Below are positions 12,208 to 29,296 of a stretch of DNA of 64,000 bases, in pieces; within the stretch, counting starts at the first letter, position 1; each line of letters begins with the position of its first letter. The position numbers and the translations under genes were made by a program. This stretch comes from Candidatus Micrarchaeota archaeon. Lineage in GTDB: Archaea > Micrarchaeota > Micrarchaeia > Anstonellales > Bilamarchaeaceae. A model generated the notes under the pieces. It saw only the letters and a program-made list of their open reading frames with translations, searched no databases and was not told where the DNA came from. Location of the stretch: contig CAZBAM010000002.1 of assembly GCA_964490215.1 (NCBI GenBank), positions 12,403-76,402 of the forward strand, read 5' to 3'.

Positions 12208-12927
12208 TTACTCCTTGAGATATTTCTCCGGGTGCTCTTCCATCTCCTTCTGCGCCAGCTCGTAGTCGTCCGGCCTGCCTATGTCCAGCCACTCGCATCT
12301 GTCCCTGAAGCAGCAGACTGTCTCGCCCTTTTTCCTGAGCCTGAGCATCAGGTCAGGCATGCCCAGCGCCTCGCCTTTCTTTATGCTGGCCAGCGCCTTC
12401 CTGTTGAGCGCGTTCACGCCCATGCTGACCAGGAACGGCATCGTGGGCTTCTCAACATAATCCTTCAGCTTCATATCCCCGTCCGCGGTTATGACGCCGT
12501 AGTCTATCTTCTGCACGCGCTCAAACACGCCTATGGTGGCCGTCGCTTTCCTGTCCTTGTGGAATTTCATCAGCTTCCCGTAATCAAGCGTGGTGAGGAT
12601 GTCGCCGTTTATAACCAGGAAGTCCTCGTCAAGGCGTATGCCCGCGCCTTCCATGATGCCGAGCGCGCCGGCGGTGTTGAGCGGTGTCTCCTCCCGCACG
12701 TATCTTATCTTCACGCCGAGATTTTCACCGTCGCCGAAATATGCCTCTATCAGCCCTGCGAGGTGGCCGGTGGATATGACGATGTCCACGAACCCGGCCT
12801 TCTTCAGCTGGTGGATGACGATTTCAAGTATGGGCTTATCGCCCAATGGAACGAGCGGCTTCGGGAACGTGGCGGTGTACGGCCTCAGCCTCGTCCCCTT
12901 CCCACCCGCGAGTATTATCGCCTGCAT
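12208..12927 (-). CDS. Sugar-1-phosphate nucleotidyltransferase (mannose-1-P guanylyltransferase / glucose-1-P cytidylyltransferase-like)
   Basis: MQAIILAGGKGTRLRPYT...KPLVPLGDKPIL, the classic NTP-transferase signature. Confidence 0.65.
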   Translation of the reverse strand: MQAIILAGGKGTRLRPYTATFPKPLVPLGDKPILEIVIHQLKKAGFVDIVISTGHLAGLIEAYFGDGENLGVKIRYVREETPLNTAGALGIMEGAGIRLDEDFLVINGDILTTLDYGKLMKFHKDRKATATIGVFERVQKIDYGVITADGDMKLKDYVEKPTMPFLVSMGVNALNRKALASIKKGEALGMPDLMLRLRKKGETVCCFRDRCEWLDIGRPDDYELAQKEMEEHPEKYLKE

Positions 12928-12992: not shown

Positions 12993-13985
12993 CTAGATGT
13001 TGTATATGTCCGGCTTGTAGCGCGCCAAATTCGCCTTTATGTGCGCCACGGTTTCAGCGACGCCTTTCTCAAACGTGTATTCCGGCTTCCAGCCTGCGAG
13101 TTCCGCTATCTTTTTGTTGCCGCACACGAGCCGCATGACCTCGCTCCTGTCAGGCCGCACGCGCTGCCCTTCCTTCACGATAGCGGCCGCGCTGCCGGTG
13201 AGCTTCTTCGCCAGCTCCACGACCTCGCCTATGGTCCTGCCCTGGCCTGTTCCGGAATTGACCACGGTTCCGACCGTCTTCTGCGATTCAGCCACCCTGA
13301 TGAACGCCTTCACCGTGTCCTTGACGTAGGTGAAGTCCCTCACCGGCTCCAGCGAGCCGAGCGATATCTCTTTTTTCCCGGCCACCATCTGCGTTATTAT
13401 CGCAGGAATCACCGCACGCGCGGACTGGCGCGGGCCGAAGGTGTTGAACGGCCTGAGCGTGGCGACCGGCAGGTTGAACGAGGTGTAGAAGCTCTCAGCC
13501 ACCATGTCCGCGCCTATCTTGCTCGCGGAATAGGGCGACTGCCCCTGCAGCGGGTGGTTCTCGTCTATGGGGACGTATCTCGCAGTGCCGTAAACCTCGC
13601 TCGTGGAGGTGTGCACGACCTTTGCCACCTTCTCCTCAAGGCATGCCTGCATGACGTTGAGCGTGCCTTTCACGTTCGTGTCAACGAAGTCCCCGGGTGC
13701 GATGTATGAATAGGGTATGGCTATAAGCGCGGCGAGGTGGAACACTGTGTCGCAGCCCTTCACGGCCCTGCGCACGAAGAACGGGTCGCGCACGTCGCCT
13801 GCCACCACGTCCAGCGCGTCCCGCGTTTCCTTCGGCAGCAGTTCCAGGTTGCCCCAGTTGTTGCCTGAGTTGTAGTGCACCATCGCCCTGACGTCGGCCC
13901 CGAGCCTCACGAGTTCCTCTGTGAGATGGGAGCCGATGAAGCCGCCTGAGCCGGTGACAAGGACCTTCCTGGATTTCCAGTTCAT
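12993..13985 (-). CDS. NDP-sugar 4,6-dehydratase/epimerase (extended SDR)
   Basis: KVLVTGSGGFIGSHL, TSTSEVYG, YSASKIGAD (YxxxK). Confidence 0.6.
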   Translation of the reverse strand: MNWKSRKVLVTGSGGFIGSHLTEELVRLGADVRAMVHYNSGNNWGNLELLPKETRDALDVVAGDVRDPFFVRRAVKGCDTVFHLAALIAIPYSYIAPGDFVDTNVKGTLNVMQACLEEKVAKVVHTSTSEVYGTARYVPIDENHPLQGQSPYSASKIGADMVAESFYTSFNLPVATLRPFNTFGPRQSARAVIPAIITQMVAGKKEISLGSLEPVRDFTYVKDTVKAFIRVAESQKTVGTVVNSGTGQGRTIGEVVELAKKLTGSAAAIVKEGQRVRPDRSEVMRLVCGNKKIAELAGWKPEYTFEKGVAETVAHIKANLARYKPDIYNI

Positions 13986-14038: not shown

Positions 14039-14626
14039 ATGGAAAAACCCGCCAGGAAAACGCTTCGTATCGAAGGCGGGCGCATCTACCTGCGGCCAAT
14101 CACGGTTTCGGATGTGGACGGCCCCTACTACCGCTGGATGAACGACCCTGAGGTGACGCGCTTCCTTGAGGCCCGCTTCTCAAAGAACACGAAGCCGGCT
14201 ATGAGGGAATTCGTCGCGTCAGCCCTGGAAAACCCGGGCGTGCTTTTCCTCGCCATAGTCCTGAAAGACGGCGACAGGCACATAGGCAACGTGAAGCTCG
14301 GGCCCATAAACAGGACGCACAACTGCGGCGACGTCGGCATAGTCATAGGCGAAAAGGACTGCTGGGGCAAGGGATACGCCACAGAGGCCCTGAAGCTCCT
14401 GTCCGACTACGCGTTCCGGAAGCTCAGGCTCCACAAGCTCAATGCAGGCTGCTACGCGGCCAATCTCGGCTCTACGAAGGCGTTCATCGCAGCAGGGTTC
14501 GAGCAGGAAGGCGTCCGGAAATCGCAATACCTCTCGGATGGAAAATACGTGGACGCGCTTCTTTTCGGGAAGGTCAATCCCGGCCCTTCCCCTTCTGCCG
14601 CACCTTCCCGCGGCCCCGGGCGCTGA
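14039..14626 (+). CDS. GNAT-family N-acetyltransferase (RimL-like)
   Basis: MEKPARKTLRIEGGRIYLRP...; acetyl-CoA binding region GIVIGEKDCWGKGYATEAL. ORF 14030 starts at GTG; ATG at 14039; TATA-like tatttaaaa about 25 nt upstream. Confidence 0.55.
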   Translation: MEKPARKTLRIEGGRIYLRPITVSDVDGPYYRWMNDPEVTRFLEARFSKNTKPAMREFVASALENPGVLFLAIVLKDGDRHIGNVKLGPINRTHNCGDVGIVIGEKDCWGKGYATEALKLLSDYAFRKLRLHKLNAGCYAANLGSTKAFIAAGFEQEGVRKSQYLSDGKYVDALLFGKVNPGPSPSAAPSRGPGR

Positions 14627-15713
14627 CCAGGGCGACCGCCTCGCCGATCGTCTTCGGGCAGAGCACGCCCCATCTCATGAAGACCTTCCTTATGTCCGCC
14701 TTGCCGGCGTATCCAGTTTCCTCCACGATGCTTATGGCAGTGGCGCCTGGGGCTATGAGCTTGCAGGTGCACAGCGCGGTCGTCGTATCTCCTATGGCGA
14801 ACTTTTCCCCGCCCCGCCCTGTCCAGTGCAGGAACAGCATCTCGGAAGTCGCAGACTGGTTCACCGTGGTCATCCCAATCCTCCCCTTCACTCCGAGGAA
14901 ATCCCCTTTCTCCTCGCGGGGATGGTATTTGACCACGGTCTTTATGCGCCTGCGTGCGAGCGCGTCAAGTATCCTCCCGTAGGCGTCCACTGTCCGCGCG
15001 TATCCCATCTGCACTGCCTGTTTGGAATTCGGAGCGAGCACCAGTGCCTCGCATTCCAGGTTCTTCACCCCGTAGCCTGCAAGGATGGAGCCGATGAGCC
15101 CGTCGCGGTCCAGGTGCAGGAAGACGTCGTTCGGTATTTTCACGAGGGATGCCCCTGCAGGCGGCGCGTCTATCAGTTCAGGCCTGAGCACCATTATCCT
15201 GTCAAAGTATGGATATTCTATCTGGGTTTCCACCCGGCGGTACCAGTGGCCGTAGAGCAGCGTTTTCGCCACCCTCGCGGCAAGGTGCTCGCGGAACTTC
15301 CTTTTCATGTATGCGTCTATGCCGTCCTCCACGTAGACGTTCCTCCCGCCGCGCCGGCGGTTGGAATAGGCAAGCAGCTGGCCTTCAGGCTGCTCTATGT
15401 TGAACACGTAGGCGTCCAGGGCGCCCTGGTGCGCGTCAAGGAACTTTCCTATCCTGCCAAGCCCGGTACGGATCGCCCCGATCCTGGCCACCGGCCCCTT
15501 CCCGCCCCACAGCTCGTTCACTATCTCCACGCTGGAGAAGGGGTTCTTCCCCCATCCCTTCAGGACCTTCACAAGCCTCTCAGTGTCACGGAAATGCGAC
15601 GATATGAGCAGGTGCTTCCTGCCGTTCCTGTCAATGTACGCTGCAATGGCTGCCGCAAGCAAAAAATGATACTGCGTGGAAACCAGGTACACGCTTTCCT
15701 TTGCTTCTGCCAT
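14574..15713 (-). CDS. Uncharacterised putative glycosyltransferase (GT52 sialyltransferase-like or capsule KpsS/TagF-like; conserved KYHPRE motif)
   Basis: MAEAKESVYLVSTQYHFLLAAAIAAY...VVKYHPREEKGDF...; the HP motif is characteristic of GT52 and TagF/KpsS families. No close recognisable signature beyond that. Confidence 0.3.
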   Translation of the reverse strand: MAEAKESVYLVSTQYHFLLAAAIAAYIDRNGRKHLLISSHFRDTERLVKVLKGWGKNPFSSVEIVNELWGGKGPVARIGAIRTGLGRIGKFLDAHQGALDAYVFNIEQPEGQLLAYSNRRRGGRNVYVEDGIDAYMKRKFREHLAARVAKTLLYGHWYRRVETQIEYPYFDRIMVLRPELIDAPPAGASLVKIPNDVFLHLDRDGLIGSILAGYGVKNLECEALVLAPNSKQAVQMGYARTVDAYGRILDALARRRIKTVVKYHPREEKGDFLGVKGRIGMTTVNQSATSEMLFLHWTGRGGEKFAIGDTTTALCTCKLIAPGATAISIVEETGYAGKADIRKVFMRWGVLCPKTIGEAVALVSARGRGKVRQKGKGRD

Positions 15714-15766: not shown

Positions 15767-16723
15767 ATGCTCATAAGCCGCGGCCTGTTCCTGCTCACGG
15801 ACCCCCGCCTTCCCCTGTACTATCCCATCAACCACGGCCGCTGGAATTCGCTCAGCAGGCGCATGGAGGCAGTGGAGCTCGGCAGCAGACCGGAGCTGGA
15901 CGTCCTTTTCACGCTGGACGTGGAATACGACTACGGCTCAGCCGGTTCGGGCGGCGCGAGGCACGTCCTTCCGTTCCTGGAACGGGCAAGGGGCTTTTTC
16001 AGCGGGCAGGGCATATCAGCGACGCTGTTCGTGCAGGGCAACCTTGTTGAAAAGGCAGCGGAAGGGCTGCACGGCCTCGGCCCTAGCCACGAAATCGGTC
16101 TTCACGGATACGCGCACGAGCCCTGGGGCGCATCGTGGTTCGTAGGCGAGAAGCTTCCGCAGGTCCCGGAGCGCAGGGAACTCCTGAAAAAATCCCTGAC
16201 GGCCTTCGGAAGGGCCGGATTCCCACGGCCCCTTTCTTTCCGCGCCCCGAACATGGTGATGGACGCAGCGTCGTTCAGGCTCCTGAAGGATGCCGGGTTC
16301 GCAGCGGATTCGTCGTTCCCGTCCTATGCCGGCGGGCTCCCGCTTCGCTCCTACCCTGAGGGCATCGCCGAGATACCAGTGTCCTTTGACCCGAAGCCGC
16401 TGTTCGGGAGGTTCCTCATGGCCCGCTACCTGGTGTTCAATACGCACAACCTCGCCAACAGGGAGTTCCGGGACGGCATCGCCAGCGCAGCCATGCGCGT
16501 GGCAAAGGCGCAGGCAGCTGCAGGGCAGAAGCCGTTCGTCGTCTTCCTCAGCCACCCCTGGGAATTCTTCCGGCCGGACGCCGCGCACGACAACGAGTTC
16601 TTCGGCTATTCATCAGAAGGCAACTTCGGGGTGCTCGCGGATGCCGTGGCGAAGTTGAAGAAGTCGTTCAGGGTGCGGTTCGCCACGGTTTCCGGGCTCG
16701 CTACGGCTTCCGCGCGTAAATGA
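15767..16723 (+). CDS. Polysaccharide deacetylase (NodB-homology, CE4-like)
   Basis: FTLDVEYDYG...HGYAHEPW...; ATG at 15767 (alternative 15863) within ORF 15701..16723; TATA-like ttttaaat about 25 nt upstream of 15767. Confidence 0.55.
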   Translation: MLISRGLFLLTDPRLPLYYPINHGRWNSLSRRMEAVELGSRPELDVLFTLDVEYDYGSAGSGGARHVLPFLERARGFFSGQGISATLFVQGNLVEKAAEGLHGLGPSHEIGLHGYAHEPWGASWFVGEKLPQVPERRELLKKSLTAFGRAGFPRPLSFRAPNMVMDAASFRLLKDAGFAADSSFPSYAGGLPLRSYPEGIAEIPVSFDPKPLFGRFLMARYLVFNTHNLANREFRDGIASAAMRVAKAQAAAGQKPFVVFLSHPWEFFRPDAAHDNEFFGYSSEGNFGVLADAVAKLKKSFRVRFATVSGLATASARK

Positions 16724-17381
16724 CTATGGGGTCGCCGTGGGTGCCTGCCCTGATGAACACGTTGCGGCCGACAAGCAGTTCTGATTTCGGCAGCCGCAGC
16801 ACAGTGGAGACCCTGGCCCCAATGTTCCTGCCGTCCGACACAGCCAAGCCTGCCTTTTCCAGCAACCCTTTCCACTCGCCCACTGTCCTCGCGTTGTCGT
16901 AGGATGCGGACCGCTTTTTTCCTGAGATGGCGTCCAGCAGGCCGGAGCGCGCAGCGTTCGGGGCCGTGGCAAACAGGAGCCCTCCTGCCTCCAGCGAGTC
17001 CATCGCATTGGCCAGGAAAGCCGCGTGCCTTTCCCTGGCGACGAGCCCGAGGACCCCGAACGACATGACGAGCGAGAACTTTTTTCCGAAAGGGTTCTTG
17101 GTGCAGTCGGCCTGCTCTACGCTTATGCCAGGGAACCTTTCCCTGCACCTGGATACAGACAGCGCGGATACGTCACTGCCGAAGCACAATGCGCCAGCAT
17201 CCTGGAATCTCTTCAACAGGAGCCCCCATCCGCAGCCCAGGTCAAGGACGTTCCTGCCTGCCATCATAATCGGCGTTATGCCATACGAAGCGAGCAGGTC
17301 AAGGTTGTATTTCGCGTTGCGAGGCTCGCCTGCCTCGTACGCGTCAATCCGCTCCTGTGTGTTGAAATAAGCGTCTTCCAT
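16701..17381 (-). CDS. Class I SAM-dependent methyltransferase
   Basis: Motif I VLDLGCGWGLL; acidic motif II. Confidence 0.55.
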   Translation of the reverse strand: MEDAYFNTQERIDAYEAGEPRNAKYNLDLLASYGITPIMMAGRNVLDLGCGWGLLLKRFQDAGALCFGSDVSALSVSRCRERFPGISVEQADCTKNPFGKKFSLVMSFGVLGLVARERHAAFLANAMDSLEAGGLLFATAPNAARSGLLDAISGKKRSASYDNARTVGEWKGLLEKAGLAVSDGRNIGARVSTVLRLPKSELLVGRNVFIRAGTHGDPIVIYARKP

Positions 17382-18823: not shown

Positions 18824-19942
18824 ATGGCAATCGTGAAGGTCGGCAGCAGGAAGATGGGCCCGGGCGAGGACATCTTTTTCATAGCCGAAATCGGCATCAA
18901 CCACAACGGCGACCTCAACCTCGCCAAAAAGATGGTGGCCGCTGCGGCTGACGCGGGTTGCGACGCTGCGAAGTTCCAGACATTCACTGCCAGGGACCTT
19001 TACATAGCGAAGGAGCATTCAGGCACCTACAGGCTGATGGGAAAGGACATCCCCATATACGACCTCCATGTGCAGCTGGAGATGCCCGAGGCCTGGATTG
19101 GCGAGCTGAACGACTACTGCAGGCAGCGCGGGATACTGTTCTTCTCCACGCCGGTTTCCCCACGCGCCGTTGACCTGCTTGACCGCCATGGCGTGCCGCT
19201 GTTCAAGGTCTCGTCCTACGACATGACCAACATCCCGCTCATAAAATACCTGAACACGAAGAAGAAGCCGGTGATTTTCTCCTGCGGCGGGGCGAAGATG
19301 AGCGAGGTTGCCGAGACAGCAGAAACGCTGGCCGCGGCAGGAACGCCATTCGCCATCATGCACTGCATAGCCAAGTATCCGGCACCCTATCATTACGCGA
19401 ACCTGGCAGTGATGGAAACCCTCAGGCGCTCGTTCGGCGTGCCGGTCGGTTTCTCCGACAACGGCTTCGCTGACGAAAAAGGCCGGATAGACTCTGGCCG
19501 CGTGCCAATCGCCGCTGCGAGCATGGGAGCTGACCTTTTTGAGATACACGTTACGCTTGACCGAAAGCTTCCGGGGCCTGACCACGGCTTCGCGACCGAG
19601 CCGGACGAGCTGAAGCGGATGGTCGCAGCCATGAGGAAAATACGCGCCGGTTACAATTCCGGCAAGCGACCCGGAGTGGAGCCGCTCCTGGCCGGAAGCC
19701 CGGTGCGCAGGACGTACGACATAGAGGAATACGTGCGCAATTTCGCGTACAAGAGCATTTTCTCCACCCGCAAAATCGCAAAGGGCGAAAGGCTGACAGC
19801 TGAAAACGCAGCAGTCCTCAGGCCTGGCGCCTCCCTGAAAAAGGGCCTGGAACCGAAATACTACGAGCTTGTGACGTCCAAGGCGTGCGCAAGGAAAGCG
19901 CTGGACGCGTGGGAACCCATAACCTGGGACAGCATACTATGA
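18824..19942 (+). CDS. pseI: Nonulosonic acid synthase (NeuB/PseI/LegI family)
   Basis: FFIAEIGINHNGDLNLAKKMVAAAADAGCDAAKFQTF, the NeuB signature; C-terminal SAF/antifreeze-like domain. Confidence 0.75.
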   Translation: MAIVKVGSRKMGPGEDIFFIAEIGINHNGDLNLAKKMVAAAADAGCDAAKFQTFTARDLYIAKEHSGTYRLMGKDIPIYDLHVQLEMPEAWIGELNDYCRQRGILFFSTPVSPRAVDLLDRHGVPLFKVSSYDMTNIPLIKYLNTKKKPVIFSCGGAKMSEVAETAETLAAAGTPFAIMHCIAKYPAPYHYANLAVMETLRRSFGVPVGFSDNGFADEKGRIDSGRVPIAAASMGADLFEIHVTLDRKLPGPDHGFATEPDELKRMVAAMRKIRAGYNSGKRPGVEPLLAGSPVRRTYDIEEYVRNFAYKSIFSTRKIAKGERLTAENAAVLRPGASLKKGLEPKYYELVTSKACARKALDAWEPITWDSIL

Positions 19943-19971
19943 GGGATGCGCGGCATTGAGGCCTGATTTGC

Positions 19972-20997
19972 ATGAAACTCCTGGTAACCGGCGGGGCCGG
20001 CTTCATCGGCTCCAACTTCGTCATCCGCGCGCTTACCGCAGGGGCCGGCGGGGCGCACGAGCCGCCGGCATCAGGCGTCAGGGTGCTGGACGCACTCACC
20101 TACGCTGCGGATTTGCGCAACCTGGAAGGCGTTTCAAAAAACAAGAACTACTCGTTCGTGAAAGGCGACGTGCGCGACCGGGCAGCTGTGGAAAAGGCGC
20201 TGGACGGCTGCGATGCAATAGTCCATTTCGCTGCCGAGAGCCACGTTGACTATTCCATCTCCAACCCGGCGCTGTTCTACGAGACCAACGTCCTCGGCAC
20301 GCTCAACCTGCTTGAGGCCGCAAGGAAGCGCGACGTCAGGTTCCTGCACATATCCACTGACGAGGTCTATGGCGACGTGCGGGAAGGCGAGAGCAGGGAA
20401 TCAGACCCGCTCGTCCCTTCCAGCCCGTATTCAGCTTCCAAGGCAGCAGCCGATCTGCTGGTAGGTGCGTATTCCCGCACCTACGGCATGGACGTGAAGA
20501 TAACGCGCACAACCAACAACTACGGGCCGTTCCAGCACATGGAGAAGCTCATACCTAAATTCGTGCTCCTCGCGCTCATGGGAAAGAAGCTCCCGGTATA
20601 CGGCACGGGCGAGTCGGTAAGGGAATGGATTCACGTGAACGACAACTGCGACGCGATACTCGCGGTCCTGGAAAAAGGCCGCTCCGGCTCGGTGTACAAC
20701 ATAGGCACGGGCGAGAGGAAGACCGTCATGGACGTCGCGAGGCTTATCCTCTCGGCCCTGGGCAGGGGCGGCTCAGGCGAGTCGCTCATCGTCCACGAGG
20801 CCCAGCGGCCCGGCGAGGACATGCGCTACGCGCTTGACAGCTCGCGGGTGCGCGCGCTCGGGTGGGCCCCGAAACTCACGTTTGAAAAAGGCATATCTGA
20901 AACCGTCCGCTGGTACGCGGAAAACCGCGCGTGGTGGGAGGGAAAGGCGAAAACACATGACCTTAGCCATAGGCATACGGAGCTTCATAAGCGCTGA
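19972..20997 (+). CDS. rmlB: dTDP-glucose 4,6-dehydratase
   Basis: MKLLVTGGAGFIGSNF; HISTDEVYGD; SPYSASKAAADLLV; TNNYGPFQHMEKLIP. Confidence 0.7.
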   Translation: MKLLVTGGAGFIGSNFVIRALTAGAGGAHEPPASGVRVLDALTYAADLRNLEGVSKNKNYSFVKGDVRDRAAVEKALDGCDAIVHFAAESHVDYSISNPALFYETNVLGTLNLLEAARKRDVRFLHISTDEVYGDVREGESRESDPLVPSSPYSASKAAADLLVGAYSRTYGMDVKITRTTNNYGPFQHMEKLIPKFVLLALMGKKLPVYGTGESVREWIHVNDNCDAILAVLEKGRSGSVYNIGTGERKTVMDVARLILSALGRGGSGESLIVHEAQRPGEDMRYALDSSRVRALGWAPKLTFEKGISETVRWYAENRAWWEGKAKTHDLSHRHTELHKR

Positions 20998-22843
20998 AGG
21001 GCTGCCGGAAGTGCTGCGGCAGGCCGCGGACGCGCGGAAGGCTTTCCCGGACGCCAGGCTCATCCTCGCCGCGTGCGGCGCGCCGGTCCCGCCTGACCTC
21101 GCCGCGCGTTTTGATTCAGTCGTGCACTACTCTGACAAGGCAGAGGGCCACGGCCGCTCCTGGTCTGTGATACTGGGCTACGCTGAGAAAAACCGCTGCG
21201 AAGACGTCATAGTAACAAACGGCAACGACCAGCACATATTCGTAGCCGTCCGCAAGGCGTATGACAGCGCCCAGCCGGGCGTCACGGTCCCTGAGCGCAT
21301 GAAGCGCGTGATATTCACGCGGGACTCCATAGACGGCCTGACGCTGGAGGACCTTGAGAACGGGTTCCTGCGCCACAAGTGGGCCATGCCGGTGCGCGAC
21401 CTGCAGAGCGGGCTCTTCATAATCAGGGGGCTGAAATACCAGGCTGGCATCGCAGCCGGCATCGGCGCCATGGACAGCTGGCTGGGCGACCTTGCGTTCT
21501 ACGACCTGCTTTTCACCAGGCACCCGGACCTGCGGATAAGCACGCCGAAAATAGAGGTCCGCAGCCAGCACTACAGCCTTTCCTCGCGGCTTTTCGTGTT
21601 CAGGACGATAGCGGCATGCGAGCTGCATTTCGGCATCACGTTCCAGGAAATCATACGGCTGGCCGAGATGGCGCCCTTCGCTTATTTCTTTGACGGCAGC
21701 ATCAGCCGCGTGGGCGAGATAGAGACCGCTTGGCTCAACTACACGAACGCTGAGAAAATCCACGGCATGAAGGCCCTCATACTCGCGGCAGGCAGGGGCA
21801 GCGGCCTGAAGCCCATAACAGACACGCGGCCCAAGCCGCTGGTGCCAGTGGCCAACAAGCCGATGATACTGTACATCGTCGAGGACATCATCAACGCCGG
21901 CATAAGCGACATAGGCATAGTCGTCAGCCCTGCCGGCGGCCCCATAAGGGAAGCGGTCGGCGACGGCTCGCGCTGGAAGGTGAGGATAACCTACATAACC
22001 CAGCCAGAGCCGCTCGGCCTTGCGCACGCGGTGCAGTGCGCCAGGGGCTTCACCGGCGCCTCGCCGTTCATACTATACCTGGGTGACAACCTGCTCAGCG
22101 GCGGTATAAGCGGTTTCGTTTCCTCGTTCGCATCCTCTTCGGACGACGCGCGGCTGATGCTCACAGTTGTGGACGACCCGGCGCGCTTCGGCGTGGTGGA
22201 GCTGGACGACAAGCTGCGGCCTGTCCGCCTCGTGGAAAAGCCCAAAAACCCGCCGAGCAACTTCGCGGTCGTTGGCATCTACGGGTTCAGGCCTGCGATA
22301 TTCGGTGCCATAGCGAAGATAAAACCGTCAGCACGTGGCGAGCTTGAGATAACCGACGCGATACAGGAACTCCTCTCGTCCTCAAAGCCTGTTTCTGCCG
22401 AGTTCGTCAGGGACTGGTGGCACGACACAGGCAAGCCGCAGTCGCTGCTGGTGGCCAACGGCCTGGTGCTTGACCACATGAAGGAAACGTTCAACGAAGG
22501 TACGTGCGCCCAGTCCGCAAGGGTGTTCGGCAGGGTGAGAATCGGCCGAGGCAGCCGGATACTTGACAACACCGAGATACGTGGGCCGGCGTGCATAGGC
22601 AGCAACTGCGTCATAGGGCCGGACTGCCTTGTCGGCCCCTACACGTCCATAGGAGATGGCGCGAAGATAAGCGGCAGCGCCCTGGAATTCTCCATGGTGT
22701 TTGACAACGCCGTGATAAAGAATGCCGGCCGCATCAGCGACAGCATAATCGGAAGCGGCTGCACTGTCACTGGAAAGGGAAAAGGCAGGCCGGATGGCGG
22801 CAGGTCCCTGGTGCTCGGCGACGGGACGAAGACAGAAGTGTGA
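20957..22843 (+). CDS. rmlA: Fusion (or translationally overlapping pair with no intervening stop): about 270-aa N-terminal domain of unknown function plus long-form glucose-1-phosphate thymidylyltransferase (RmlA with a left-handed beta-helix C-terminus)
   Basis: C-terminal half from internal ATG 21767: MKALILAAGRGSGLKP...KPLVPVANKPMI...; LbH hexapeptide repeats at the end. N-terminal half (MTLAIGIRSFISAEGLPEVL...) has no recognisable family. ATG 20957 overlaps the rmlB 3' end. Confidence 0.6.
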   Translation: MTLAIGIRSFISAEGLPEVLRQAADARKAFPDARLILAACGAPVPPDLAARFDSVVHYSDKAEGHGRSWSVILGYAEKNRCEDVIVTNGNDQHIFVAVRKAYDSAQPGVTVPERMKRVIFTRDSIDGLTLEDLENGFLRHKWAMPVRDLQSGLFIIRGLKYQAGIAAGIGAMDSWLGDLAFYDLLFTRHPDLRISTPKIEVRSQHYSLSSRLFVFRTIAACELHFGITFQEIIRLAEMAPFAYFFDGSISRVGEIETAWLNYTNAEKIHGMKALILAAGRGSGLKPITDTRPKPLVPVANKPMILYIVEDIINAGISDIGIVVSPAGGPIREAVGDGSRWKVRITYITQPEPLGLAHAVQCARGFTGASPFILYLGDNLLSGGISGFVSSFASSSDDARLMLTVVDDPARFGVVELDDKLRPVRLVEKPKNPPSNFAVVGIYGFRPAIFGAIAKIKPSARGELEITDAIQELLSSSKPVSAEFVRDWWHDTGKPQSLLVANGLVLDHMKETFNEGTCAQSARVFGRVRIGRGSRILDNTEIRGPACIGSNCVIGPDCLVGPYTSIGDGAKISGSALEFSMVFDNAVIKNAGRISDSIIGSGCTVTGKGKGRPDGGRSLVLGDGTKTEV

Positions 22844-22889
22844 TACGATACTTCAGCATTACCATCCACCAGCCCACTTTATGCCCCAT

Positions 22890-23879
22890 TTATTTTCTGA
22901 AGCGTATTGTTTCACGCATATCAGATACCACGCCATGTATATTCAGCACCCGGTCAAAAACTGTGCTCCAATTGGAATCATACGGCATTTGCTCATAGAA
23001 TTGCATGCGACCGTTTTCTAGCCGGCTGGTGCTGTTGAAGTTGTAAAAATATATATTGCCGCGCGCTTGTATTATGCGGAAATATTTCTCTATCTCATTC
23101 CATGGCATTTCAATAAGAGAAACCGAGTTTATGAAAAGCCGTATGTCCCTGGCTTGCAGCACTTCCTCAGCGAGACTGGAGGGGATGAACACAATGCAGT
23201 CCTTTGCCCGGAAGTTCTTCAGGTCGTCTTTCTTTTCAACGAAAAAGAGCCTTCTGCCAGTGCTCTGCCTGGCCAGGTAAGTCATGCTCAATGCAAGCGT
23301 TTCAAACAGGTCTATTATGTAGTAGTTGTCCAGTTTATCCTGGTTGAGGCAGAATAGTTCCGCGAAGCCTCCGTACCCCCCCCCAATCTCACAAGCCGAG
23401 AACCTGCTTTCCTGGAGGACTGGCACGTTGGCCTTTATGACCGCCAGCTGTGCCGCATAACGTCTTATGTTCGCATTGAATATTTTCCCATTGAAGGAGT
23501 AAAACAAGTCCTGAAAGTTCTTCCGGTCAGGCGGCAGGGTTATGCCTGCCTCGGTAAGGACGTTAAACTCTATTCTTGGTCTGACGGACTGAAAAGGCCA
23601 GATAAGCGCATTTCTCATCATATGGAGATATAGCCGTCTGGTTATGCCCTGTTTGCTCCCGAAGCATCTCGACAGACCGCCAATCATGTATTGCCAGGTA
23701 CATCTCACCGGCGGGTCCAGCACGCCATCTGAGAATCGCGTAAGGTAGAATTTATCCAGCTTAGCCAGTTCGGCTTTTGTTCCGGCCATATCCTTCCATG
23801 TGCCAGACAATTCAGAGGCGTATCCATCCCATTTTTCCAATACGAACTTTGCAACGTTGTCGCGCGTTATTTCGAACAT
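22890..23879 (-). CDS. Putative sugar O-methyltransferase-like protein (class I MTase-like, EIGGGYGGFAE)
   Basis: Gly-rich SAM-binding-like motif; gene is visibly AT-richer than its neighbours. Confidence 0.4.
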   Translation of the reverse strand: MFEITRDNVAKFVLEKWDGYASELSGTWKDMAGTKAELAKLDKFYLTRFSDGVLDPPVRCTWQYMIGGLSRCFGSKQGITRRLYLHMMRNALIWPFQSVRPRIEFNVLTEAGITLPPDRKNFQDLFYSFNGKIFNANIRRYAAQLAVIKANVPVLQESRFSACEIGGGYGGFAELFCLNQDKLDNYYIIDLFETLALSMTYLARQSTGRRLFFVEKKDDLKNFRAKDCIVFIPSSLAEEVLQARDIRLFINSVSLIEMPWNEIEKYFRIIQARGNIYFYNFNSTSRLENGRMQFYEQMPYDSNWSTVFDRVLNIHGVVSDMRETIRFRK

Positions 23880-23888
23880 ACCAATCCC

Positions 23889-24677
23889 CTACAGCAGCGT
23901 GAACCCGCCATCAACGACGAGGTTCTGGCCTGTAACGTATTTCGCAGCAGGCGACGCGAGGAACACCGCAGCGCCCTTCAGGTCCGTGTCATTGGCCATC
24001 CTTCCCATGGGCGTCTTGTATTCGTAGTTCTTCACGAACTCCGGCGCCTGGCTGTTGAAGAGCCCGCCGGGCGAGATGCAGTTCACGCGGATGTTGTGCC
24101 TGGCGAGATAGGCCGCAAGGTAGCGCGTCATGTGTATCACGCCTGCCTTGGTGGCCGCATAGACTTCCGAACTGTTCCTGCCTGAATCGCCGTATATGCG
24201 GTAGTCAGCGGTCGTCACGCCATAGACCGAGCCGATGTTTATTATGCAGCCGCCCTTCTGCCTCATCATCTGCGCCGCGAACGCCTGCGAGCAAAGGAAC
24301 GTGCCGGTGAGATTGACCTTCAGCGCCTTTTCAAACTCCTCCACTGTCCTGTTCTCAAAAAGCGTGAATACGCCCATGCCTGCGTTGTTCACCAGCACGT
24401 CGGCCTTCCCGAATTCGGCAAGCACTGCCTTCAGTGCCTTCTCCACTGACTTGCGGTCTGTTATGTCCATCGCCAGCCCGACGCATTTCTTCCGGCCTTT
24501 TGAGAGCGCGTTCGCGCGCTTTACGCACTCCTTCAGCGCGTCGCCGTCAAGGTCAGCGAGCACCACGTGCGCGCCTGCCTCGGAATACGCCTTCGTGAGC
24601 TGGTCGCCGACCTGCCCTGCCGCGCCAGTCACCACCACGACCATGCCCTCAAGCCTGAAGGAATCAATCACGTTCAT
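23889..24677 (-). CDS. Short-chain dehydrogenase/reductase (classical SDR)
   Basis: VVVTGAAGQVG; NNAG; YAATKAGV (YxxxK). Internal ATG at 24677 (ORF to 24710). Confidence 0.6.
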   Translation of the reverse strand: MNVIDSFRLEGMVVVVTGAAGQVGDQLTKAYSEAGAHVVLADLDGDALKECVKRANALSKGRKKCVGLAMDITDRKSVEKALKAVLAEFGKADVLVNNAGMGVFTLFENRTVEEFEKALKVNLTGTFLCSQAFAAQMMRQKGGCIINIGSVYGVTTADYRIYGDSGRNSSEVYAATKAGVIHMTRYLAAYLARHNIRVNCISPGGLFNSQAPEFVKNYEYKTPMGRMANDTDLKGAAVFLASPAAKYVTGQNLVVDGGFTLL

Positions 24678-24744
24678 GCCAATGACACCTGGATGGTTTT
24701 CACACCGCACATAATAAAACCAATACGCTGGAAATTATTGCCAT

Positions 24745-26547
24745 ATGCCCGGAGACGCAATCAGTACAATCCGCATCCTGTTCAGGTGCGACGGCGGCAG
24801 GACGCCGGAAATCGGCACCGGCCACGTTGCGCGCTGCAGCCGCCTCGCCGAAGCCCTTGCCAGCGACGGCGACGTGGAAGCGTCCTTCCTGATGGGGGAC
24901 AACGATTTCTCAAGGGCGTTTGCGTCAGGGGCGAAATGGAAGGTCCATCTTTTCCCGGAAAACGACCTGAAGGCGTGCGCTGCCATACTCTCCAAGCACA
25001 AGCCTGACATACTCGTCGTGGACCGGCTGGACTCGGACCCCGCGTTCATGGACGCGGCCCGCAAGCTTTGCAGGGTGCTGGTGACGGTTGACGACCTCGG
25101 GCCTGGCGCGAAACTCGCTGACCTGGTGATAAACGGCATAGTGGGCGACGGCAAGGGGTCCTACACAGGCCCGGCCTACGTCATAACCCCGCCCCAGCCC
25201 GGCCTCGGCTCGCAGCCCGGCGCCTCGTTGAAGGAAATCCGGCCGGTGTGCGAAAAGATATTCGTCAGCTTCGGCGGCTACGACCACCTCAACCTCACCC
25301 TCAAGGCGGCCCGGGCGCTGGAGTCCCTGGACAAGTCAAAGGACGTGCGCATAGCGGTCGGCAGTGAATACCCGTTCCAGGCAGAGTTGGACGCATTCAT
25401 GAAAAGCTCCGGGCGCCGCTTCTCTGTTTACCGTGCGCCGGAAAACTTCGCCGAACTCCTGTCAGGCTCTGACCTCGCGATAACGAACGGTGGCCTCACC
25501 CTTTTTGAGGCCATGGCTGCAGGCGTGCCAGCGCTCGTGCTCGCGCAATACGACCACCAGGCAAAGACAGGGAGCGAATACGCGAAGCGCGGCGCGTGCG
25601 GTTTCCTGGGACTGGGGGACGCGGTCCCAGGGGCTGAGATATCCAGGCGCGCAGCCGCGCTCATGTCCGACCACGAGGCTAGGCAGCGCATGTCCCGCAA
25701 GGCCAGGAAGCTGGTGGACGGGAAGGGCCTCCGGCGGGTGGCAGACCTCGTGCGTGTCGTCAGGCCCCTGAACTGGGACAGCGGCTTTTTCAGGATGAAG
25801 ATAGCCAAGGTCACAGCCTCCCGCCTCAACGAAAGGATGGCATCGTTCATAGACGACTGGTGCGCAGCCAATTCGGTCCGCTGCCTCTACTACCTGTGCG
25901 ACTGCGACCACGCGGAAAGCGTCAGCATTGCAGAGGCGCACGGCTTCCACTTCACAGACATCCGGCTCACTTTGGAGGCAGACCTGGAAGGGCATCCGCA
26001 AGTCCATCAGGGAGGCCACCCGGAAAGCCACCTGGAAGGCCATCAAGGAGGTCATCAGGAAGGCCATTCGCAGCAGCGCGGCACCGGCCCTGACATCCGC
26101 GAGTGCGCAACCCAGGATCTGCCCGGCATAAGGGCCATCGCCGGCCGGAGCTACGTCATGAGCAGGTATTACTACGACGGCCACTTCAGCAAGGAAATGC
26201 TCGAGCGGTTCTACAGCGACTGGCTTGAAGGCACCTTCCGCTCCCCGCAGGGCAAGGTCTTCGTTGCGCACAGGGACGGGAAGCCCGTGGGCTACGTTTC
26301 AGGCGAGGTTGATTCCGCTGCCGGGCACGGCAGGATAATCCTGGTCGGCGTGGACGAGGCCAGCTCAGGCGACGGCACCGGCAGGCGGCTGGTGGACGCA
26401 ATGCTGGGCTGGATGCAGGGCCGCGGCTCGTACACCGTGGAGGTTGTGACGCAGGGCCGGAACATCCCTGCCCAGCGGCTCTACCAGAAATGCGGGTTTA
26501 AGATAGTTTCAGCGCACATATGGTATCACAAATGGTTTCAGCATTAG
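24745..26547 (+). CDS. pseGH: PseG–PseH fusion: UDP-2,4-diacetamido-2,4,6-trideoxy-hexose hydrolase-like domain plus GNAT N-acetyltransferase domain, joined by a His-rich linker
   Basis: N-terminus IRILFRCDGGRTPEIGTGHVARCSRLAEAL matches the PseG start (R.DG....G.GH..RC..LA); C-terminal VFVAHRDGKPVGYVSG...VDAMLGWMQGRG...QRLYQKCGFK is GNAT; linker EGHPQVHQGGHPESHLEGHQGGHQEGH. Confidence 0.6.
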   Translation: MPGDAISTIRILFRCDGGRTPEIGTGHVARCSRLAEALASDGDVEASFLMGDNDFSRAFASGAKWKVHLFPENDLKACAAILSKHKPDILVVDRLDSDPAFMDAARKLCRVLVTVDDLGPGAKLADLVINGIVGDGKGSYTGPAYVITPPQPGLGSQPGASLKEIRPVCEKIFVSFGGYDHLNLTLKAARALESLDKSKDVRIAVGSEYPFQAELDAFMKSSGRRFSVYRAPENFAELLSGSDLAITNGGLTLFEAMAAGVPALVLAQYDHQAKTGSEYAKRGACGFLGLGDAVPGAEISRRAAALMSDHEARQRMSRKARKLVDGKGLRRVADLVRVVRPLNWDSGFFRMKIAKVTASRLNERMASFIDDWCAANSVRCLYYLCDCDHAESVSIAEAHGFHFTDIRLTLEADLEGHPQVHQGGHPESHLEGHQGGHQEGHSQQRGTGPDIRECATQDLPGIRAIAGRSYVMSRYYYDGHFSKEMLERFYSDWLEGTFRSPQGKVFVAHRDGKPVGYVSGEVDSAAGHGRIILVGVDEASSGDGTGRRLVDAMLGWMQGRGSYTVEVVTQGRNIPAQRLYQKCGFKIVSAHIWYHKWFQH

Positions 26548-26600
26548 GTTTCAGCATCAACCCTGTTAGCCCTGTTTGACGATGACTGTTTGGCGATGAG

Positions 26601-27809
26601 ATGAACAAGCCTGCGATTGACGGTGGAAAACCAGTGGCACAGGAGAAGGATTACATCCGCTTCTGCCCCCCCATGATCGAGGTCGACGACCTGCGGGCTG
26701 TCGAAGAGATCCTCAAGAGCGGATGGCTGAGCACAGGCCCGAAGGCGCAGGAGTTCGAGGCCGCGTTCATGGAATACACGGGCGCGAAGAACGCGCTCGC
26801 GCTCAACTCCTGCACAGCAGGCCTGCACCTGTCGCTCCTGGCCCACGGCATAGGCCCCGGCGACGAGGTCATAGTGCCTGCGATGACCTTCGCTGCCACT
26901 GCCAACGTGGTCGAGCTGGTGGGCGCGAAGCCTGTGCTCGCCGATTCCGTGCAGTCAGGCTTCAACATGGATCCGGCTGACGCAGCCAGGCGGATAACGC
27001 CCAGGACGAAGGCCATGATTCCGGTCCATTTCGGCGGCCTGCCCTGCGAGATGGACGCGATAGGTGCGCTGGCTGTGGAAAAGGGCCTGCACATAATAGA
27101 GGATTGCGCACATGCCATCGGTTCTGCCTACCGCGGCAAGCGCATAGGCAGCTCAGCCAACCTCTCGTGCTTCAGCTTCTACCCCACGAAAAACATGACA
27201 ACGATAGAAGGCGGCATGGTGACCGGCCCGGCAGCGGACCGGGCGCTTTTCTCCCGCATGCGCATGCTCTCACTACACGGCATGTCAAAGGACGCGTTCA
27301 AGCGGTTCTCGAAGGAGGGCGCGGCGCACTACGAAATAGAGATGCCCGGCTTCAAGTACAACATGCCTGACGTTTCAGCCGCGCTCGGTCTGAGCCAGCT
27401 GAGGAAGGTGGAGCGGTTCAACGCCCTGCGCGCCAGGTACGCGAAATACCTCGCCGACCGGCTCGAGGACGTGCCCGGCATCATACTGCCGCCGGACGTG
27501 CCGCCGCACGTGAAAAGTTCCTGGCACATGTTCCCGTTCATGGTCAACCCGGCTGAAACACGGATAACGCGGGACCGCATGCTCGAGGCCCTGAAAAAGG
27601 AAAACATAGGCGTCGGGGTGCACTACCGCTCCCTACACGTCCACAAGTACTACCGCGAGAAATACGGGTTCCGCAGGGAGGACTACCCCCGCGCGGCTTT
27701 CATCTCAGACAACACCTTCTCGGTTCCGTTCTCGCATTCCATGAGCGAAAAGGAGCTCGAGCTGGTGGCTGACGCACTGGTGAGGATAGCGAGGCACTAC
27801 AAGAAATAG
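26601..27809 (+). CDS. pseC: DegT/DnrJ/EryC1/StrS-family sugar aminotransferase (PseC-like)
   Basis: ...VDDLRAVEEILKSGWLSTGPKAQEFEAAF...; PLP-lysine region FSFYPTKNMT. Confidence 0.7.
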   Translation: MNKPAIDGGKPVAQEKDYIRFCPPMIEVDDLRAVEEILKSGWLSTGPKAQEFEAAFMEYTGAKNALALNSCTAGLHLSLLAHGIGPGDEVIVPAMTFAATANVVELVGAKPVLADSVQSGFNMDPADAARRITPRTKAMIPVHFGGLPCEMDAIGALAVEKGLHIIEDCAHAIGSAYRGKRIGSSANLSCFSFYPTKNMTTIEGGMVTGPAADRALFSRMRMLSLHGMSKDAFKRFSKEGAAHYEIEMPGFKYNMPDVSAALGLSQLRKVERFNALRARYAKYLADRLEDVPGIILPPDVPPHVKSSWHMFPFMVNPAETRITRDRMLEALKKENIGVGVHYRSLHVHKYYREKYGFRREDYPRAAFISDNTFSVPFSHSMSEKELELVADALVRIARHYKK

Positions 27810-27876
27810 CAAAAAAAACAGGCGGCAGGACGCCGTAAGGAAACAGGCGAAGAGTTGCTGGTAAGGTGCTGATTCC

Positions 27877-28683
27877 ATGGCTGTTGGCGCGATAATACAG
27901 GCAAGGATGGGCTCCACGAGGCTTCCGGGCAAGATCATGAAGACCGTCCTCGGCAAGCCGCTGCTGGCGCTCATGCTGGAGCGCGTGAAGCTGGCCCGCT
28001 CGCTGGACGTAGTGGTGGTCGCGATACCTGACACGCCTGAGAACGACGGCCTCGCAGCGCTCTGCGGGCAGTGCGGGGTGCAGGTGTTCAGGGGAAGCGA
28101 GAACGACGTGCTGTCGAGATACTACCTGGCCGCGAAGAAGTTCTCCCTTGACCCGGTGGTCAGGCTGACGTCCGACTGCCCGCTCATCGACCCGGCGCTC
28201 GTGGACCACGCTGTTTTCCTGTACCGGAAGGGCGGCTACGACTACTTCACGAACGCCATAGAGCGGACCTATCCGGACGGCCAGGACATAGAGATAATCT
28301 CCTTCCGGGCGCTTGAAACCGCGTACCAGCGGGCGACTGACACCCACGACCGGGAGCACGTGACGACATACATAGGCGTCAGGGACAAAGAGTTCAGGCA
28401 CGGCAACTTCCGCTACAAGAAAGACCTTTCAAAACTCAGGTGGACCGTTGATTATCCCGCGGATTTTGATTTCGTGGCCGCGGTCTTCAGGGAGCTTTAT
28501 CCGTCAAAAGGCGCGGCTTTCTCCATGGAGGACGTCCTGGAGCTGCTGGCCCGCAAGCCCGGGATAGGCAGGATAAACGAGAACGTCACAGGCAAGGACA
28601 ACCTCAAGATAGCGAAGGAAAGGCGGAAGAAGGGGATGCGCGGAACCGCGGCCGGCGGGAAACGGGAAACCGGAAACCAATAA
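27877..28683 (+). CDS. pseF: CMP-nonulosonic acid synthetase (acylneuraminate cytidylyltransferase family, PseF/NeuA-like)
   Basis: [23 protein letters not shown], the CTP-transferase signature. Confidence 0.65.
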
Positions 28684-28697: not shown

Positions 28698-29291
28698 ATG
28701 GTTACAACGATGAAACCATCCGATTTGTTGCAGGAGCACTTCAAAGCCTGCCAGCGCATCAGCGCCGCCGAGATTGAGGCAGTCGCATCCCCAATCATCG
28801 CCGCCCTCAAGGCCGGCAACAAGGTCCTCATCTGCGGCAACGGCGGCAGTGCCGCCGACGCCCAGCATTTCGCGGCAGAGCTCAGCGGCAGGTACGTCCG
28901 GGAAAGGAAGGCGCTGCCAGGCATCGCGCTCACTGCCGACACGTCAGTGCTGACGGCGATTTCAAACGACTACGGATTCGGGCGCGTGTTCGCACGCCAG
29001 GTGGAGGCGCTTGGCAGGAAGGGCGACGTGCTCGTGCTCATAAGCACCAGCGGCGAGTCCGAGAACCTGCTGGAGGCCGCGAACGCGGCGAAGGCGCTCG
29101 GCATGGCCACGGTCGGCCTCCTCGGGAAAGGGGGCGGGCGGCTGAAGATGCCGTGCGACAGGTCGCTCGTGGTCGCCTCGGACAGCACGCCGGCGGTGCA
29201 GGAGATGCACATACTCATAATCCACTGCATCTGCGGGATGGTGGACGACGCGTTCGCAGGGCCGTTGCGCGTAGCCCACAAAAGCGGGTAG
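28698..29291 (+). CDS. gmhA: D-sedoheptulose-7-phosphate isomerase (SIS domain)
   Basis: [22 protein letters not shown], the GmhA signature. Confidence 0.7.
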
Positions 29292-29296
29292 CTGCC

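Follow-up and report, generated by a model that had tools for sequence, protein, structure and literature searches.

A probable Sps-type nonulosonic acid module with a PseG-like::WecD-type fusion protein in a Micrarchaeota-related archaeon

Sialic-acid-like sugars are found on S-layers, flagella and archaella, and lipopolysaccharides, where they influence how hosts, viruses, and partner cells recognize the surface. Which of these 9-carbon keto-sugars, the nonulosonic acids (NulO), is made by a gene module at 18824-28683 of a stretch of DNA from a Candidatus Micrarchaeota archaeon (assembly GCA_964490215.1, contig CAZBAM010000002.1, positions 12,403 to 76,402) is the question considered here. 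The whole stretch, referred to as the window, comprises 64 kb of a larger contig and is the DNA that was searched. An earlier note on its sequence had read the interval as a pseudaminic acid (Pse) module in which a PseG hydrolase and a PseH acetyltransferase are fused through a His-rich linker. The open reading frames (ORFs) that it named all lie where it placed them, and the NulO module is present as described, with a NeuB-family synthase, a DegT aminotransferase, a cytidylyltransferase, and a fusion of a PseG-like and a GNAT domain (Table 1). In the window, DegT, GNAT, NeuB, and cytidylyltransferase each occur in one copy. As judged from sequence, the interval is probably the core of a module for a cytidine monophosphate (CMP)-nonulosonate of an uncharacterized Sps type, in the legionaminic class rather than Pse. 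The closest experimentally studied relative is the Bacillus subtilis Sps pathway (SpsC/D/G/E/F), which makes legionaminic acid. The module is placed within a ∼35-kb surface-glycan island of an uncultured, Micrarchaeota-related archaeon. Micrarchaeota are described as living attached to host cells, a lifestyle to which a surface nonulosonate would be relevant.

Assignment of the module relies on the comparison of its enzymes with curated family models and solved structures. The synthase, predicted to carry out the aldol condensation of phosphoenolpyruvate (PEP) with a 6-deoxy-hexosamine, scores higher with the NeuB model (280.1 bits; cut-off 399.65) than with the PseI model TIGR03586 (233.8 bits; cut-off 340.25). 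Its best solved relative is B. subtilis SpsE (PDB 1vli; 294 bits, full length, 44% identity over 362 amino acids (aa)), whose score is over double that of every other solved NeuB-family protein, including meningococcal NeuB (142 bits) and PseI (130 bits). The DegT-family aminotransferase remains below the cut-offs (in parentheses) of the ArnB model with 364.8 bits (631), of PseC TIGR03588 with 335.2 (423.5), of the WecE-type model with 224 (375), and of LegC TIGR04181 with 203.3 (420), and it matches the ArnB structure 1mdo with 311 bits. The cytidylyltransferase matches the Leptospira enzyme 6oew with 151 bits, in comparison with 25.4 bits for the PseF model TIGR03584 (cut-off 205.7), and one member of its cluster is named SpsF by JGI. 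The structures 1mdo and 6oew are the templates given for SpsC and SpsF, respectively (PMC7439481). The module is hence Sps-like and not Pse-like, since its synthase is nearest to SpsE, its DegT enzyme and cytidylyltransferase match the SpsC and SpsF templates, and the Pse models stay below their cut-offs. SpsE works in the legionaminic acid pathway of B. subtilis, in which formation of the sugar depends on spsC, D, E, G, and M, and its transfer on spsF (Dubois et al. 2020, PMC7439481).

On the same evidence, the proposal of the earlier note, canonical pseudaminic acid synthesis with PseG and PseH fused, is very unlikely. None of the six Pse equivalog models attains its curated cut-off: PseG, PseI, PseC, PseF, and PseB fall short, and the PseH model TIGR03585 has no match at E ≤ 0.001 on the 600-aa fusion protein. 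The note had remarked on the lack of a PseB-type inverting dehydratase, and the 64-kb window indeed contains none; the best scores with TIGR03589 (cut-off 407.75) are 67 bits for the ORF at 12993-13985 and 57 bits for that at 19972-20997, and both of these dehydratases are of non-inverting families. The pseudaminic reading gains from the N-terminal domain of the fusion, which is of the PseG family (E 1.5e-34), from the DegT enzyme, whose score relative to the cut-off is highest for PseC, and from the absence of a NeuC-type hydrolyzing epimerase in the window, but a synthase so much nearer to SpsE than to PseI is hard to reconcile with it. A canonical NeuC-type legionaminic acid (Leg) assignment was likewise ruled out on curated hidden Markov model (HMM) cut-offs.

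As the earlier note said, the 600-aa ORF begins with a PseG match and ends with a GNAT domain (PF00583, residues 481-585). The PseG model TIGR03590 covers residues 10-275 (model positions 2-276 of 280) with 119.9 bits, below the cut-off of 153.55, and exceeds the MurG model (20.9 bits) by 100 bits, while the histidine of the G-x-G-H motif (H27) is invariant across 14 homologues. Epimerase_2 has only a sub-threshold match within this domain (E 7e-4). The outcome that the note had held to contradict its proposal, a MurG-like N-terminal domain and a NeuC-type epimerase, was thus not what the window contained. By its sequence, the N-terminal half can be placed in the PseG family, below equivalog level. 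The name PseH, however, does not suit the C-terminal 260 residues, which form a two-domain WecD-type module. The WecD model PRK10975 aligns with residues 338-596 over profile positions 6-231 of 232 (82.9 bits; cut-off 219), TIGR02382 gives 60.4 bits (cut-off 195), and WecD 2fs5 is the top sequence match in the PDB. In the AlphaFold model of the fusion (14 homologues; mean pLDDT 86, pTM 0.85), Foldseek superposes the whole WecD chain 2fs5 on the acetyltransferase half with a TM score of 0.81, and the N-terminal half matches PseG 3hbm (TM 0.72) and MurG (TM 0.75). The WecD profile coordinates and these superpositions place the enzyme-enzyme junction near residues 335-342.

By fold alone, the GT-B domain fits MurG and other transferases as well as PseG. 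Together with the PseG score below cut-off and the many glycosyltransferases of the island, this gives some support to a reading in which the genes do not form one pathway: the fusion and the DegT enzyme would make a nucleoside diphosphate (NDP)-4-acetamido-4,6-dideoxyhexose for a glycan, with the GT-B domain as the transferase, and NeuB and the cytidylyltransferase would belong to an unrelated keto-sugar route. Such a division is highly improbable given the lead of the PseG HMM over MurG and the gene neighborhoods. Every fusion locus examined, across phyla, has NeuB directly before the fusion (or, in the clade of the window, within ∼5 kb) and a cytidylyltransferase within ∼3 kb. Moreover, fusions of a PseG-like domain to a cytidylyltransferase domain (CTP_transf_3) exist, as in proteins P0040-42.

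The fusion is rare and scattered. An index of 5.8 billion proteins contains 33 full-length relatives, of which the 32 others measure 552-585 aa against 600 here. Approximately 11 of 185,579 GTDB species representatives, a set that does not include the window's own genome, carry it (top match 62%), belonging to Omnitrophota, Elusimicrobiota, Gemmatimonadota, Chloroflexota, Planctomycetota, and Nitrospirota, with one Micrarchaeota metagenome-assembled genome (MAG). The same gene order is present in the related loci L003/L004, L005, and L165, where the fusion proteins are 62-66% identical, and a reduced core is retained in more distant loci at 30-45% identity; the gene set is therefore not a chance juxtaposition. 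Two types of context can be distinguished. In the first (the window, L003-L015, L165, L167, and L169), the order is short-chain dehydrogenase/reductase (SDR), NeuB, fusion, DegT, cytidylyltransferase, and class-III aminotransferase. The second (L166, L168, and L170) consists of DUF4910, a NeuB without the SAF domain, fusion, DegT, cytidylyltransferase, a radical-SAM/SPASM protein, and a GFO oxidoreductase, and stands beside a NeuC-type cassette whose dehydratase, where scored, reaches 316 bits with the PseB-family (Polysacc_synt_2) model (cut-off 407.75). That the two stand side by side in these three loci speaks against redundancy of the fusion module with the NeuC-type cassette and suggests that they make different products.

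The fusion here differs from its relatives by a His-rich segment. The peptide EGHPQVHQGGHPESHLEGHQGGHQEGH agrees letter for letter with the one that the earlier note quoted, but the segment is not the linker it was taken for. The repeat occupies residues ∼413-441, inside the acetyltransferase half and beyond the junction, in a loop between the WecD-like N-subdomain and the GNAT subdomain; a role as inter-enzyme linker is ruled out by the AlphaFold model, by the alignment of homologues, and by where the WecD profile matches. Among all six frames of the 64-kb window, this is the sole run with H-x3 periodicity, so the repeat is not a compositional accident. It is missing from 13 of 13 aligned homologues and from the 32 other full-length relatives, and residues 421-446 are the longest stretch of the fusion model with pLDDT below 50. 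The note had also called the segment slippage-prone. The units are degenerate, with copies only 65-78% identical to one another in DNA, and assemblies from two other sequencing runs (ERR3804376 and ERR4334730) show 100% DNA identity across 10.8-14.5 kb including the repeat, hence no variation in repeat length is seen, although the runs possibly sample the same population and are a weak test. Present-day slippage or strain variation was rejected on these grounds, and in our view the repeat arose by slippage long ago, its units diverging afterward. As an insertion in the loop, it is read as recent and lineage-specific, predicted to be disordered, unneeded for the fold, and of doubtful function.

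The earlier note had supposed that one of the generic SDRs may provide the entry step of the pathway or that it lies elsewhere, and left unmentioned three genes in or near the interval, which encode an RmlB, a protein that joins a GT-A-fold domain to a long-form RmlA, and a LegB-like enzyme. Two specific 4,6-dehydratases are thus available, RmlB above its cut-off and the LegB-like enzyme just short of it (TIGR04180, 469.8 bits, E 3e-141, full length; cut-off 475). The rmlB gene follows the synthase gene on the same strand after 29 nt and overlaps the gene of the 628-aa protein by 41 nt; its orthologue in L165 scores 399.7 bits. The C-terminal 358 residues of the 628-aa protein are a long-form glucose-1-phosphate thymidylyltransferase, and the same gene call is found in a public collection. 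The LegB-like gene lies 5 kb upstream on the opposite strand and is syntenic in L005 (86% identity). It forms a triad at 11262-13985 (-) with a 239-aa nucleotidyltransferase, for which the best NCBIfam match is mannose-1-phosphate guanylyltransferase (159 bits, below cut-off), and a 305-aa epimerase-family protein. Relatives of the nucleotidyltransferase directly adjoin LegB-like genes in most of ∼60 loci.

On balance, we lean toward entry from an NDP-linked N-acetylglucosamine (GlcNAc), through the LegB-like enzyme or through one encoded elsewhere. This NDP-HexNAc route is favored by the precedent of B. subtilis and by a DegT enzyme that resembles those acting on uridine diphosphate (UDP)-sugars. 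The B. subtilis entry enzyme is SpsM, which acts on UDP-GlcNAc and is encoded at a separate locus, and the rml-type genes spsI-L are part of the sps operon (PMC7439481). On the NDP-GlcNAc reading, the RmlA and RmlB of the operon would belong to the synthesis of another 6-deoxy sugar, like spsI-L of B. subtilis.

Several observations weigh against a legionaminic-type module entered in this way. No equivalog model of a NulO pathway is passed; only RmlA and RmlB pass, and neither is a NulO enzyme. RmlB and the long-form RmlA are in the synthase operon of all four close relatives (L003/L004, L005, and L165), of which L003 has no LegB-like gene within 10 kb, and a rhamnose pathway could not be finished with the genes of the window, which include neither RmlC nor RmlD. 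The locus with the nearest LegB-like relative, L086, keeps the triad (62/60/42% identity) with no NeuB within 10 kb, and many further LegB-like relatives have the triad without NeuB, while others sit in ordinary Leg cassettes. It may be, then, that the triad makes a 6-deoxy sugar on its own, and a score at the level of TIGR04180 is by itself no evidence of a legionaminic acid pathway. A dehydratase of the SpsM/PglF/CapD type (Polysacc_synt_2) is not present in the window, where the other extended SDRs are generic epimerase-family proteins; this is weak evidence because in B. subtilis, too, spsM lies outside the operon. Finally, 2-epimerization, which the legionaminic configuration needs, is not a known activity of PseG-type hydrolases.

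A different entry can be envisaged, in which RmlA-long and RmlB would supply dTDP-4-keto-6-deoxyglucose (dTDP, deoxythymidine diphosphate), the DegT enzyme and the WecD-type domain would convert it to dTDP-4-acetamido-4,6-dideoxyhexose (Qui4NAc or Fuc4NAc), and the PseG-type domain would free the sugar for synthesis of a new NulO, a 7-acetamido-3,7,9-trideoxy-nonulosonate with a 5-hydroxyl; the SDR and class-III aminotransferase may further aminate the product. RmlB and RmlA-long are above their equivalog cut-offs, the co-directional order of neuB, rmlB, and the 628-aa gene is conserved in L003/4, L005, and L165, and without RmlC or RmlD in the window the product of RmlB needs another consumer. 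The acetyltransferase half resembles WecD, the substrate of which is a dTDP-sugar, and stand-alone relatives of this half (33-41% identity) lie beside DegT genes and sometimes RmlA/RmlB (L053, L078, and L084). The self-contained look of the LegB-like triad points the same way. Nevertheless, the dTDP-glucose-fed route is unlikely, as the farther fusion loci (L006-L015 and L166-L170) lack RmlA/RmlB within 10 kb and the DegT enzyme is nearest to the UDP-sugar aminotransferases ArnB and PseC, not to WecE or DesI. In B. subtilis, the only studied homologous system, spsI-L are in the operon and yet entry is through SpsM on UDP-GlcNAc (PMC7439481). Extended SDRs at 6566-7534, 9133-10065, 11262-12179, and 33060-33968 are candidates for reduction of the RmlB product to a 6-deoxyhexose, and the class-III aminotransferase/SDR unit also occurs in cassettes that supply both amines (L172 and L173), which speaks against a unit dedicated to amination at C5.

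The sequences directly show the families of the enzymes, their domain layout, the synteny kept among relatives, and the fusions of genes; from these we infer all catalytic steps, the nucleotide carrier, and the product. In the Sps-type pathway favored here, a non-inverting 4,6-dehydratase would form an NDP-4-keto-6-deoxy-hexose(NAc), which the sole DegT enzyme of the window would aminate at C4. The WecD-type half of the 600-aa protein would N-acetylate the C4 amine, and the PseG/SpsG-type half of the same polypeptide would remove the nucleotide by hydrolysis, so that two consecutive steps would be joined in one protein. The SpsE-like synthase would join PEP to the 6-deoxy-hexosamine thus freed, and formation of the CMP-sugar would fall to the SpsF-like enzyme. 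The SDR and class-III aminotransferase would constitute an accessory unit, most likely for oxidation and then transamination or epimerization of the nonulosonate itself, and two methyltransferases and a deacetylase-like protein may serve as tailoring enzymes.

The accessory unit recurs well beyond the fusion. The class-III aminotransferase, with 245 bits for PRK06209 (below cut-off), has more than 8000 matches at E ≤ 1e-40, the top 120 of which are at least 63% identical and come from archaea and bacteria; its family is far commoner and more conserved than the fusion. It is joined to the cytidylyltransferase (CTP_transf_3) in L167 (11716-13881), in L172 (10001-12031), and in five of the top 120 aminotransferase matches, with P0077, P0079, P0080, P0183, and P0192 as fusion proteins of this kind. 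One fusion of the aminotransferase to GNAT was also seen (P0170). In L165, the aminotransferase orthologue (2351-4678, -; 775 aa) has a LAGLIDADG (intein-type) insertion between the two halves of the Aminotran_3 domain. The SDR scores 210 bits with PRK09186 (cut-off 255) and 248 bits with PDB 6uh2, and its gene adjoins NeuB or the fusion in L003-L015, L167, L169, L172, and L173.

In L172 and L173, the cytidylyltransferase/aminotransferase/SDR unit is found with NeuC-type cassettes in which a dehydratase, a DegT enzyme, and an acetyltransferase are already encoded. These complete cassettes weaken the idea that the aminotransferase and SDR serve specifically to provide the C5 amine on a dTDP route, and the aminotransferase is better viewed as an add-on that acts late. 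The solved relatives of the aminotransferase include sugar enzymes that aminate aldehydes or ketones (C-6' aminotransferases). Because complete NeuC-type cassettes carry the unit and some of the solved relatives aminate sugars, a late oxidation and transamination (or epimerization) of the nonulosonate, coupled to CMP activation, can be inferred. No characterized pair of SpsF and class-III aminotransferase, or fusion of the two, was found in the literature. There is a possibility, a modest one, that the module makes an undescribed nonulosonic acid, either derived from dTDP-glucose without a C5 nitrogen (7-acetamido-3,7,9-trideoxy-nonulosonate) or further aminated to a triamino type, with the SDR and class-III aminotransferase acting on the (CMP-)nonulosonate. 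If the aminated version is true, the widespread cytidylyltransferase::aminotransferase unit would represent an unrecognized late amination of sialic-acid-like sugars in DPANN archaea and many uncultured bacteria. For a new tailoring reaction on nonulosonic acids, the aminotransferase family offers the best starting point.

Table 1. Features of the module and its surroundings, with positions in the 64-kb window
Feature	Position	Strand	Basis
239-aa sugar-1-phosphate nucleotidyltransferase (guanylyl/uridylyl-transferase-like), possible entry step, partner of LegB-like enzyme	12208..12927	-	PF00483 E 2e-44
LegB-like NAD-dependent non-inverting NDP-sugar 4,6-dehydratase, candidate legionaminic-type entry	12993..13985	-	TIGR04180
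379-aa conserved protein, candidate nonulosonate transferase	14574..15713	-	synteny
Polysaccharide-deacetylase-like protein, 318 aa	15767..16723	+	PF01522 E 1e-5; conserved L003, L005, L165
SAM-dependent methyltransferase, 226 aa, tailoring candidate	16701..17381	-	Methyltransf_25/11/23; conserved L005, L165
Class-III (glutamate-1-semialdehyde-aminomutase-like) aminotransferase, 440 aa	17391..18713	-	PF00202 E 1e-36
NeuB-family SpsE-like nonulosonate synthase with SAF domain	18824..19942	+	PF03102 E 1e-69
dTDP-glucose 4,6-dehydratase (RmlB equivalog)	19972..20997	+	TIGR01181 422.8 bits, cut-off 365.1
GT-A-fold N-domain (residues 1-270) with RmlA-long (271-628), 628 aa	20957..22843	+	TIGR01208 395.6 bits, cut-off 320.25
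NanM-like putative sugar O-methyltransferase, 329 aa	22890..23879	-	TIGR04371 70.1 bits, cut-off 44
Classical SDR, 262 aa, core member	23889..24677	-	adh_short_C2 E 2e-54
PseG-like::WecD-type fusion, 600 aa	24745..26547	+	TIGR03590 and PF00583
PseG/SpsG-like GT-B domain (residues 1 to ∼335), predicted NDP-sugar hydrolase	24745..25749	+	TIGR03590
WecD/SpsD-type two-subdomain N-acetyltransferase half (residues ∼338-600)	25756..26547	+	PRK10975, TIGR02382
Seven degenerate 12-nt repeats, x-x-x-His units	25982..26066	+	LEGH-PQVH-QGGH-PESH-LEGH-QGGH-QEGH
DegT-family NDP-4-keto-sugar aminotransferase (ArnB/PseC/SpsC-like)	26601..27809	+	PF01041 E 3e-118
SpsF-type cytidylyltransferase (CTP_transf_3), predicted CMP-nonulosonate synthetase	27877..28683	+	PF02348 E 7e-27

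Additional genes accompany the module. The 379-aa protein has no Pfam or NCBIfam match and no domain even at E 0.5; its homologues (48-50% identity) are encoded alongside the module in L003/L004 and L005, and that of L003 has a weak precomputed match to PF07388 (alpha-2,8-polysialyltransferase). The NanM-like methyltransferase gene is present in L003/4 and not in L005 or L165. The N-domain of the 628-aa protein (20957-21766, 270 aa) has no sequence match in Pfam, NCBIfam, or the PDB. An exhaustive HMMER search of 1.84 billion proteins found 17 cluster representatives of this domain, some stand-alone (∼260-290 aa) and some fused (∼625 aa), and a word-index search found two matches. Its AlphaFold2 model (3-sequence alignment, pLDDT 73) resembles GT-A glycosyltransferases at a TM score of ∼0.5 (mannosylglycerate synthase, DPM synthase, and WrtF). 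Its conserved motif, D/N-G-N/D-D/A-Q-H, recalls the DADLQH motif of GT2 enzymes.

The island extends to both sides of the module. Directly 3' of the cytidylyltransferase gene, at 28698-33968, is a set of ADP-heptose-type genes that is unusual for an archaeon: GmhA (210 bits; cut-off 209), an HldE kinase domain, an HldE adenylyltransferase domain (188 bits; cut-off 181.5), a GT9 heptosyltransferase-like gene, and an HldD-like epimerase. Next to these heptose genes, another PseG-like protein is encoded on its own at 31901-32995 (76 bits) and shares 28% identity with the N-terminal half of the fusion. The upstream part of the island, at 1702-11071, contains an LPG_synthase_TM-like protein, a PMT_2/ArnT-like membrane glycosyltransferase, GT2 and GT4 enzymes, an NDP-sugar dehydrogenase (TIGR03026, 293 bits; cut-off 190), and two extended-SDR epimerase/reductase genes, either of which could be a consumer of the RmlB product. 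Two ORFs with no family assigned (7507-8115 and 8299-9129) are conserved in L003.

The host is archaeal by its marker genes, and by its nearest named relatives it is Micrarchaeota-related, of a DPANN-like kind. The window encodes an archaeal proteasome alpha subunit (317.5 bits; cut-off 287.35), an RFC large subunit (339.5 bits; cut-off 280), a Hef nuclease, and an archaeal-type GlmM. Several module proteins have their nearest named relatives in Candidatus Micrarchaeota MAGs (62-86% identity). A scan of the window for tRNA genes found none. In a 1152-aa ORF at 59594-63052 (-), residues 659-1103 match the Hef nuclease/helicase and residues ∼50-500 match intein-containing models of unrelated proteins (IF-2, RFC small subunit, V-ATPase A, and RNAP A''), which suggests an intein inserted in Hef. 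The GC content is 48-49% at 60-64 kb and 56-62% elsewhere in the window.

What emerges from comparison with known systems is a recurrent, uncharacterized module type, defined by the PseG::WecD fusion, an SpsE-like synthase, and an SpsF-like cytidylyltransferase with a class-III aminotransferase and an SDR, in which a Pse annotation drawn from the PseG-like and GNAT protein would mislead. The C-terminal half of the fusion has the two subdomains (N-subdomain and GNAT) and the whole-chain fold of Escherichia coli WecD (PDB 2fs5/2ft0), but is only ∼19% identical to it in the structural alignment, falls far below the WecD cut-off, and, unlike WecD, is joined to a PseG-type domain and bears the His-repeat insertion. 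The Pse pathway of Campylobacter and Helicobacter follows the same logic of dehydratase, aminotransferase, GNAT, PseG-type hydrolase, NeuB-family synthase, and CMP activation, whereas the window lacks a 5-inverting dehydratase, has a WecD-type GNAT in place of PseH, and its Pse model scores are below cut-off or absent; the synthase and cytidylyltransferase resemble the Sps type. With the Leg cassettes of the Campylobacter/Leptospira type, the window shares a LegB-like dehydratase with an adjoining nucleotidyltransferase and a NeuB-family synthase; it lacks a LegC-type aminotransferase (203 vs 420 bits), a hexapeptide LegH, a NeuC-type LegG, and a NeuA-type LegF.

In the O-antigen cluster of Legionella pneumophila serogroups 6 and 12, the adjacent genes Lp6_762-765 are annotated as GNAT, PseG, class-III aminotransferase, and cytidylyltransferase (PMC3694923). 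These are, by annotation, the same four gene types as in the module, but the Legionella genes are separate, unfused, and functionally uncharacterized; a link of that cluster to the 4-epi-legionaminic acid of non-Sg1 strains is our conjecture. They are followed by HisF/HisH-like genes, as is the fusion module in L009, a relative from Elusimicrobia with HisF-like and HisH-like (glutamine amidotransferase) genes at 14719-16118, which suggests acetamidino formation there; the pair is not in the window. Most similar of all is the Sps system of B. subtilis, which has in common with the module an SpsE-like synthase, an ArnB-like DegT enzyme (SpsC), a GNAT, an SpsF-type (6oew-like) cytidylyltransferase, and a PseG-like GT-B hydrolase where others have a NeuC-type epimerase. 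The likeness to SpsC, SpsF, SpsG, and SpsD is drawn through structural templates (1mdo and 6oew) and the fold classes reported for Sps proteins. Instead of an SpsM/PglF-type dehydratase, the window has RmlB and the LegB-like enzyme, and it adds the SDR, the class-III aminotransferase, methyltransferases, and the deacetylase-like protein, without RmlC or RmlD and in an archaeal host. Both systems carry rmlA/rmlB-type genes within the operon, and it is in the archaeon that acetyltransferase and hydrolase are joined in one 600-aa protein.

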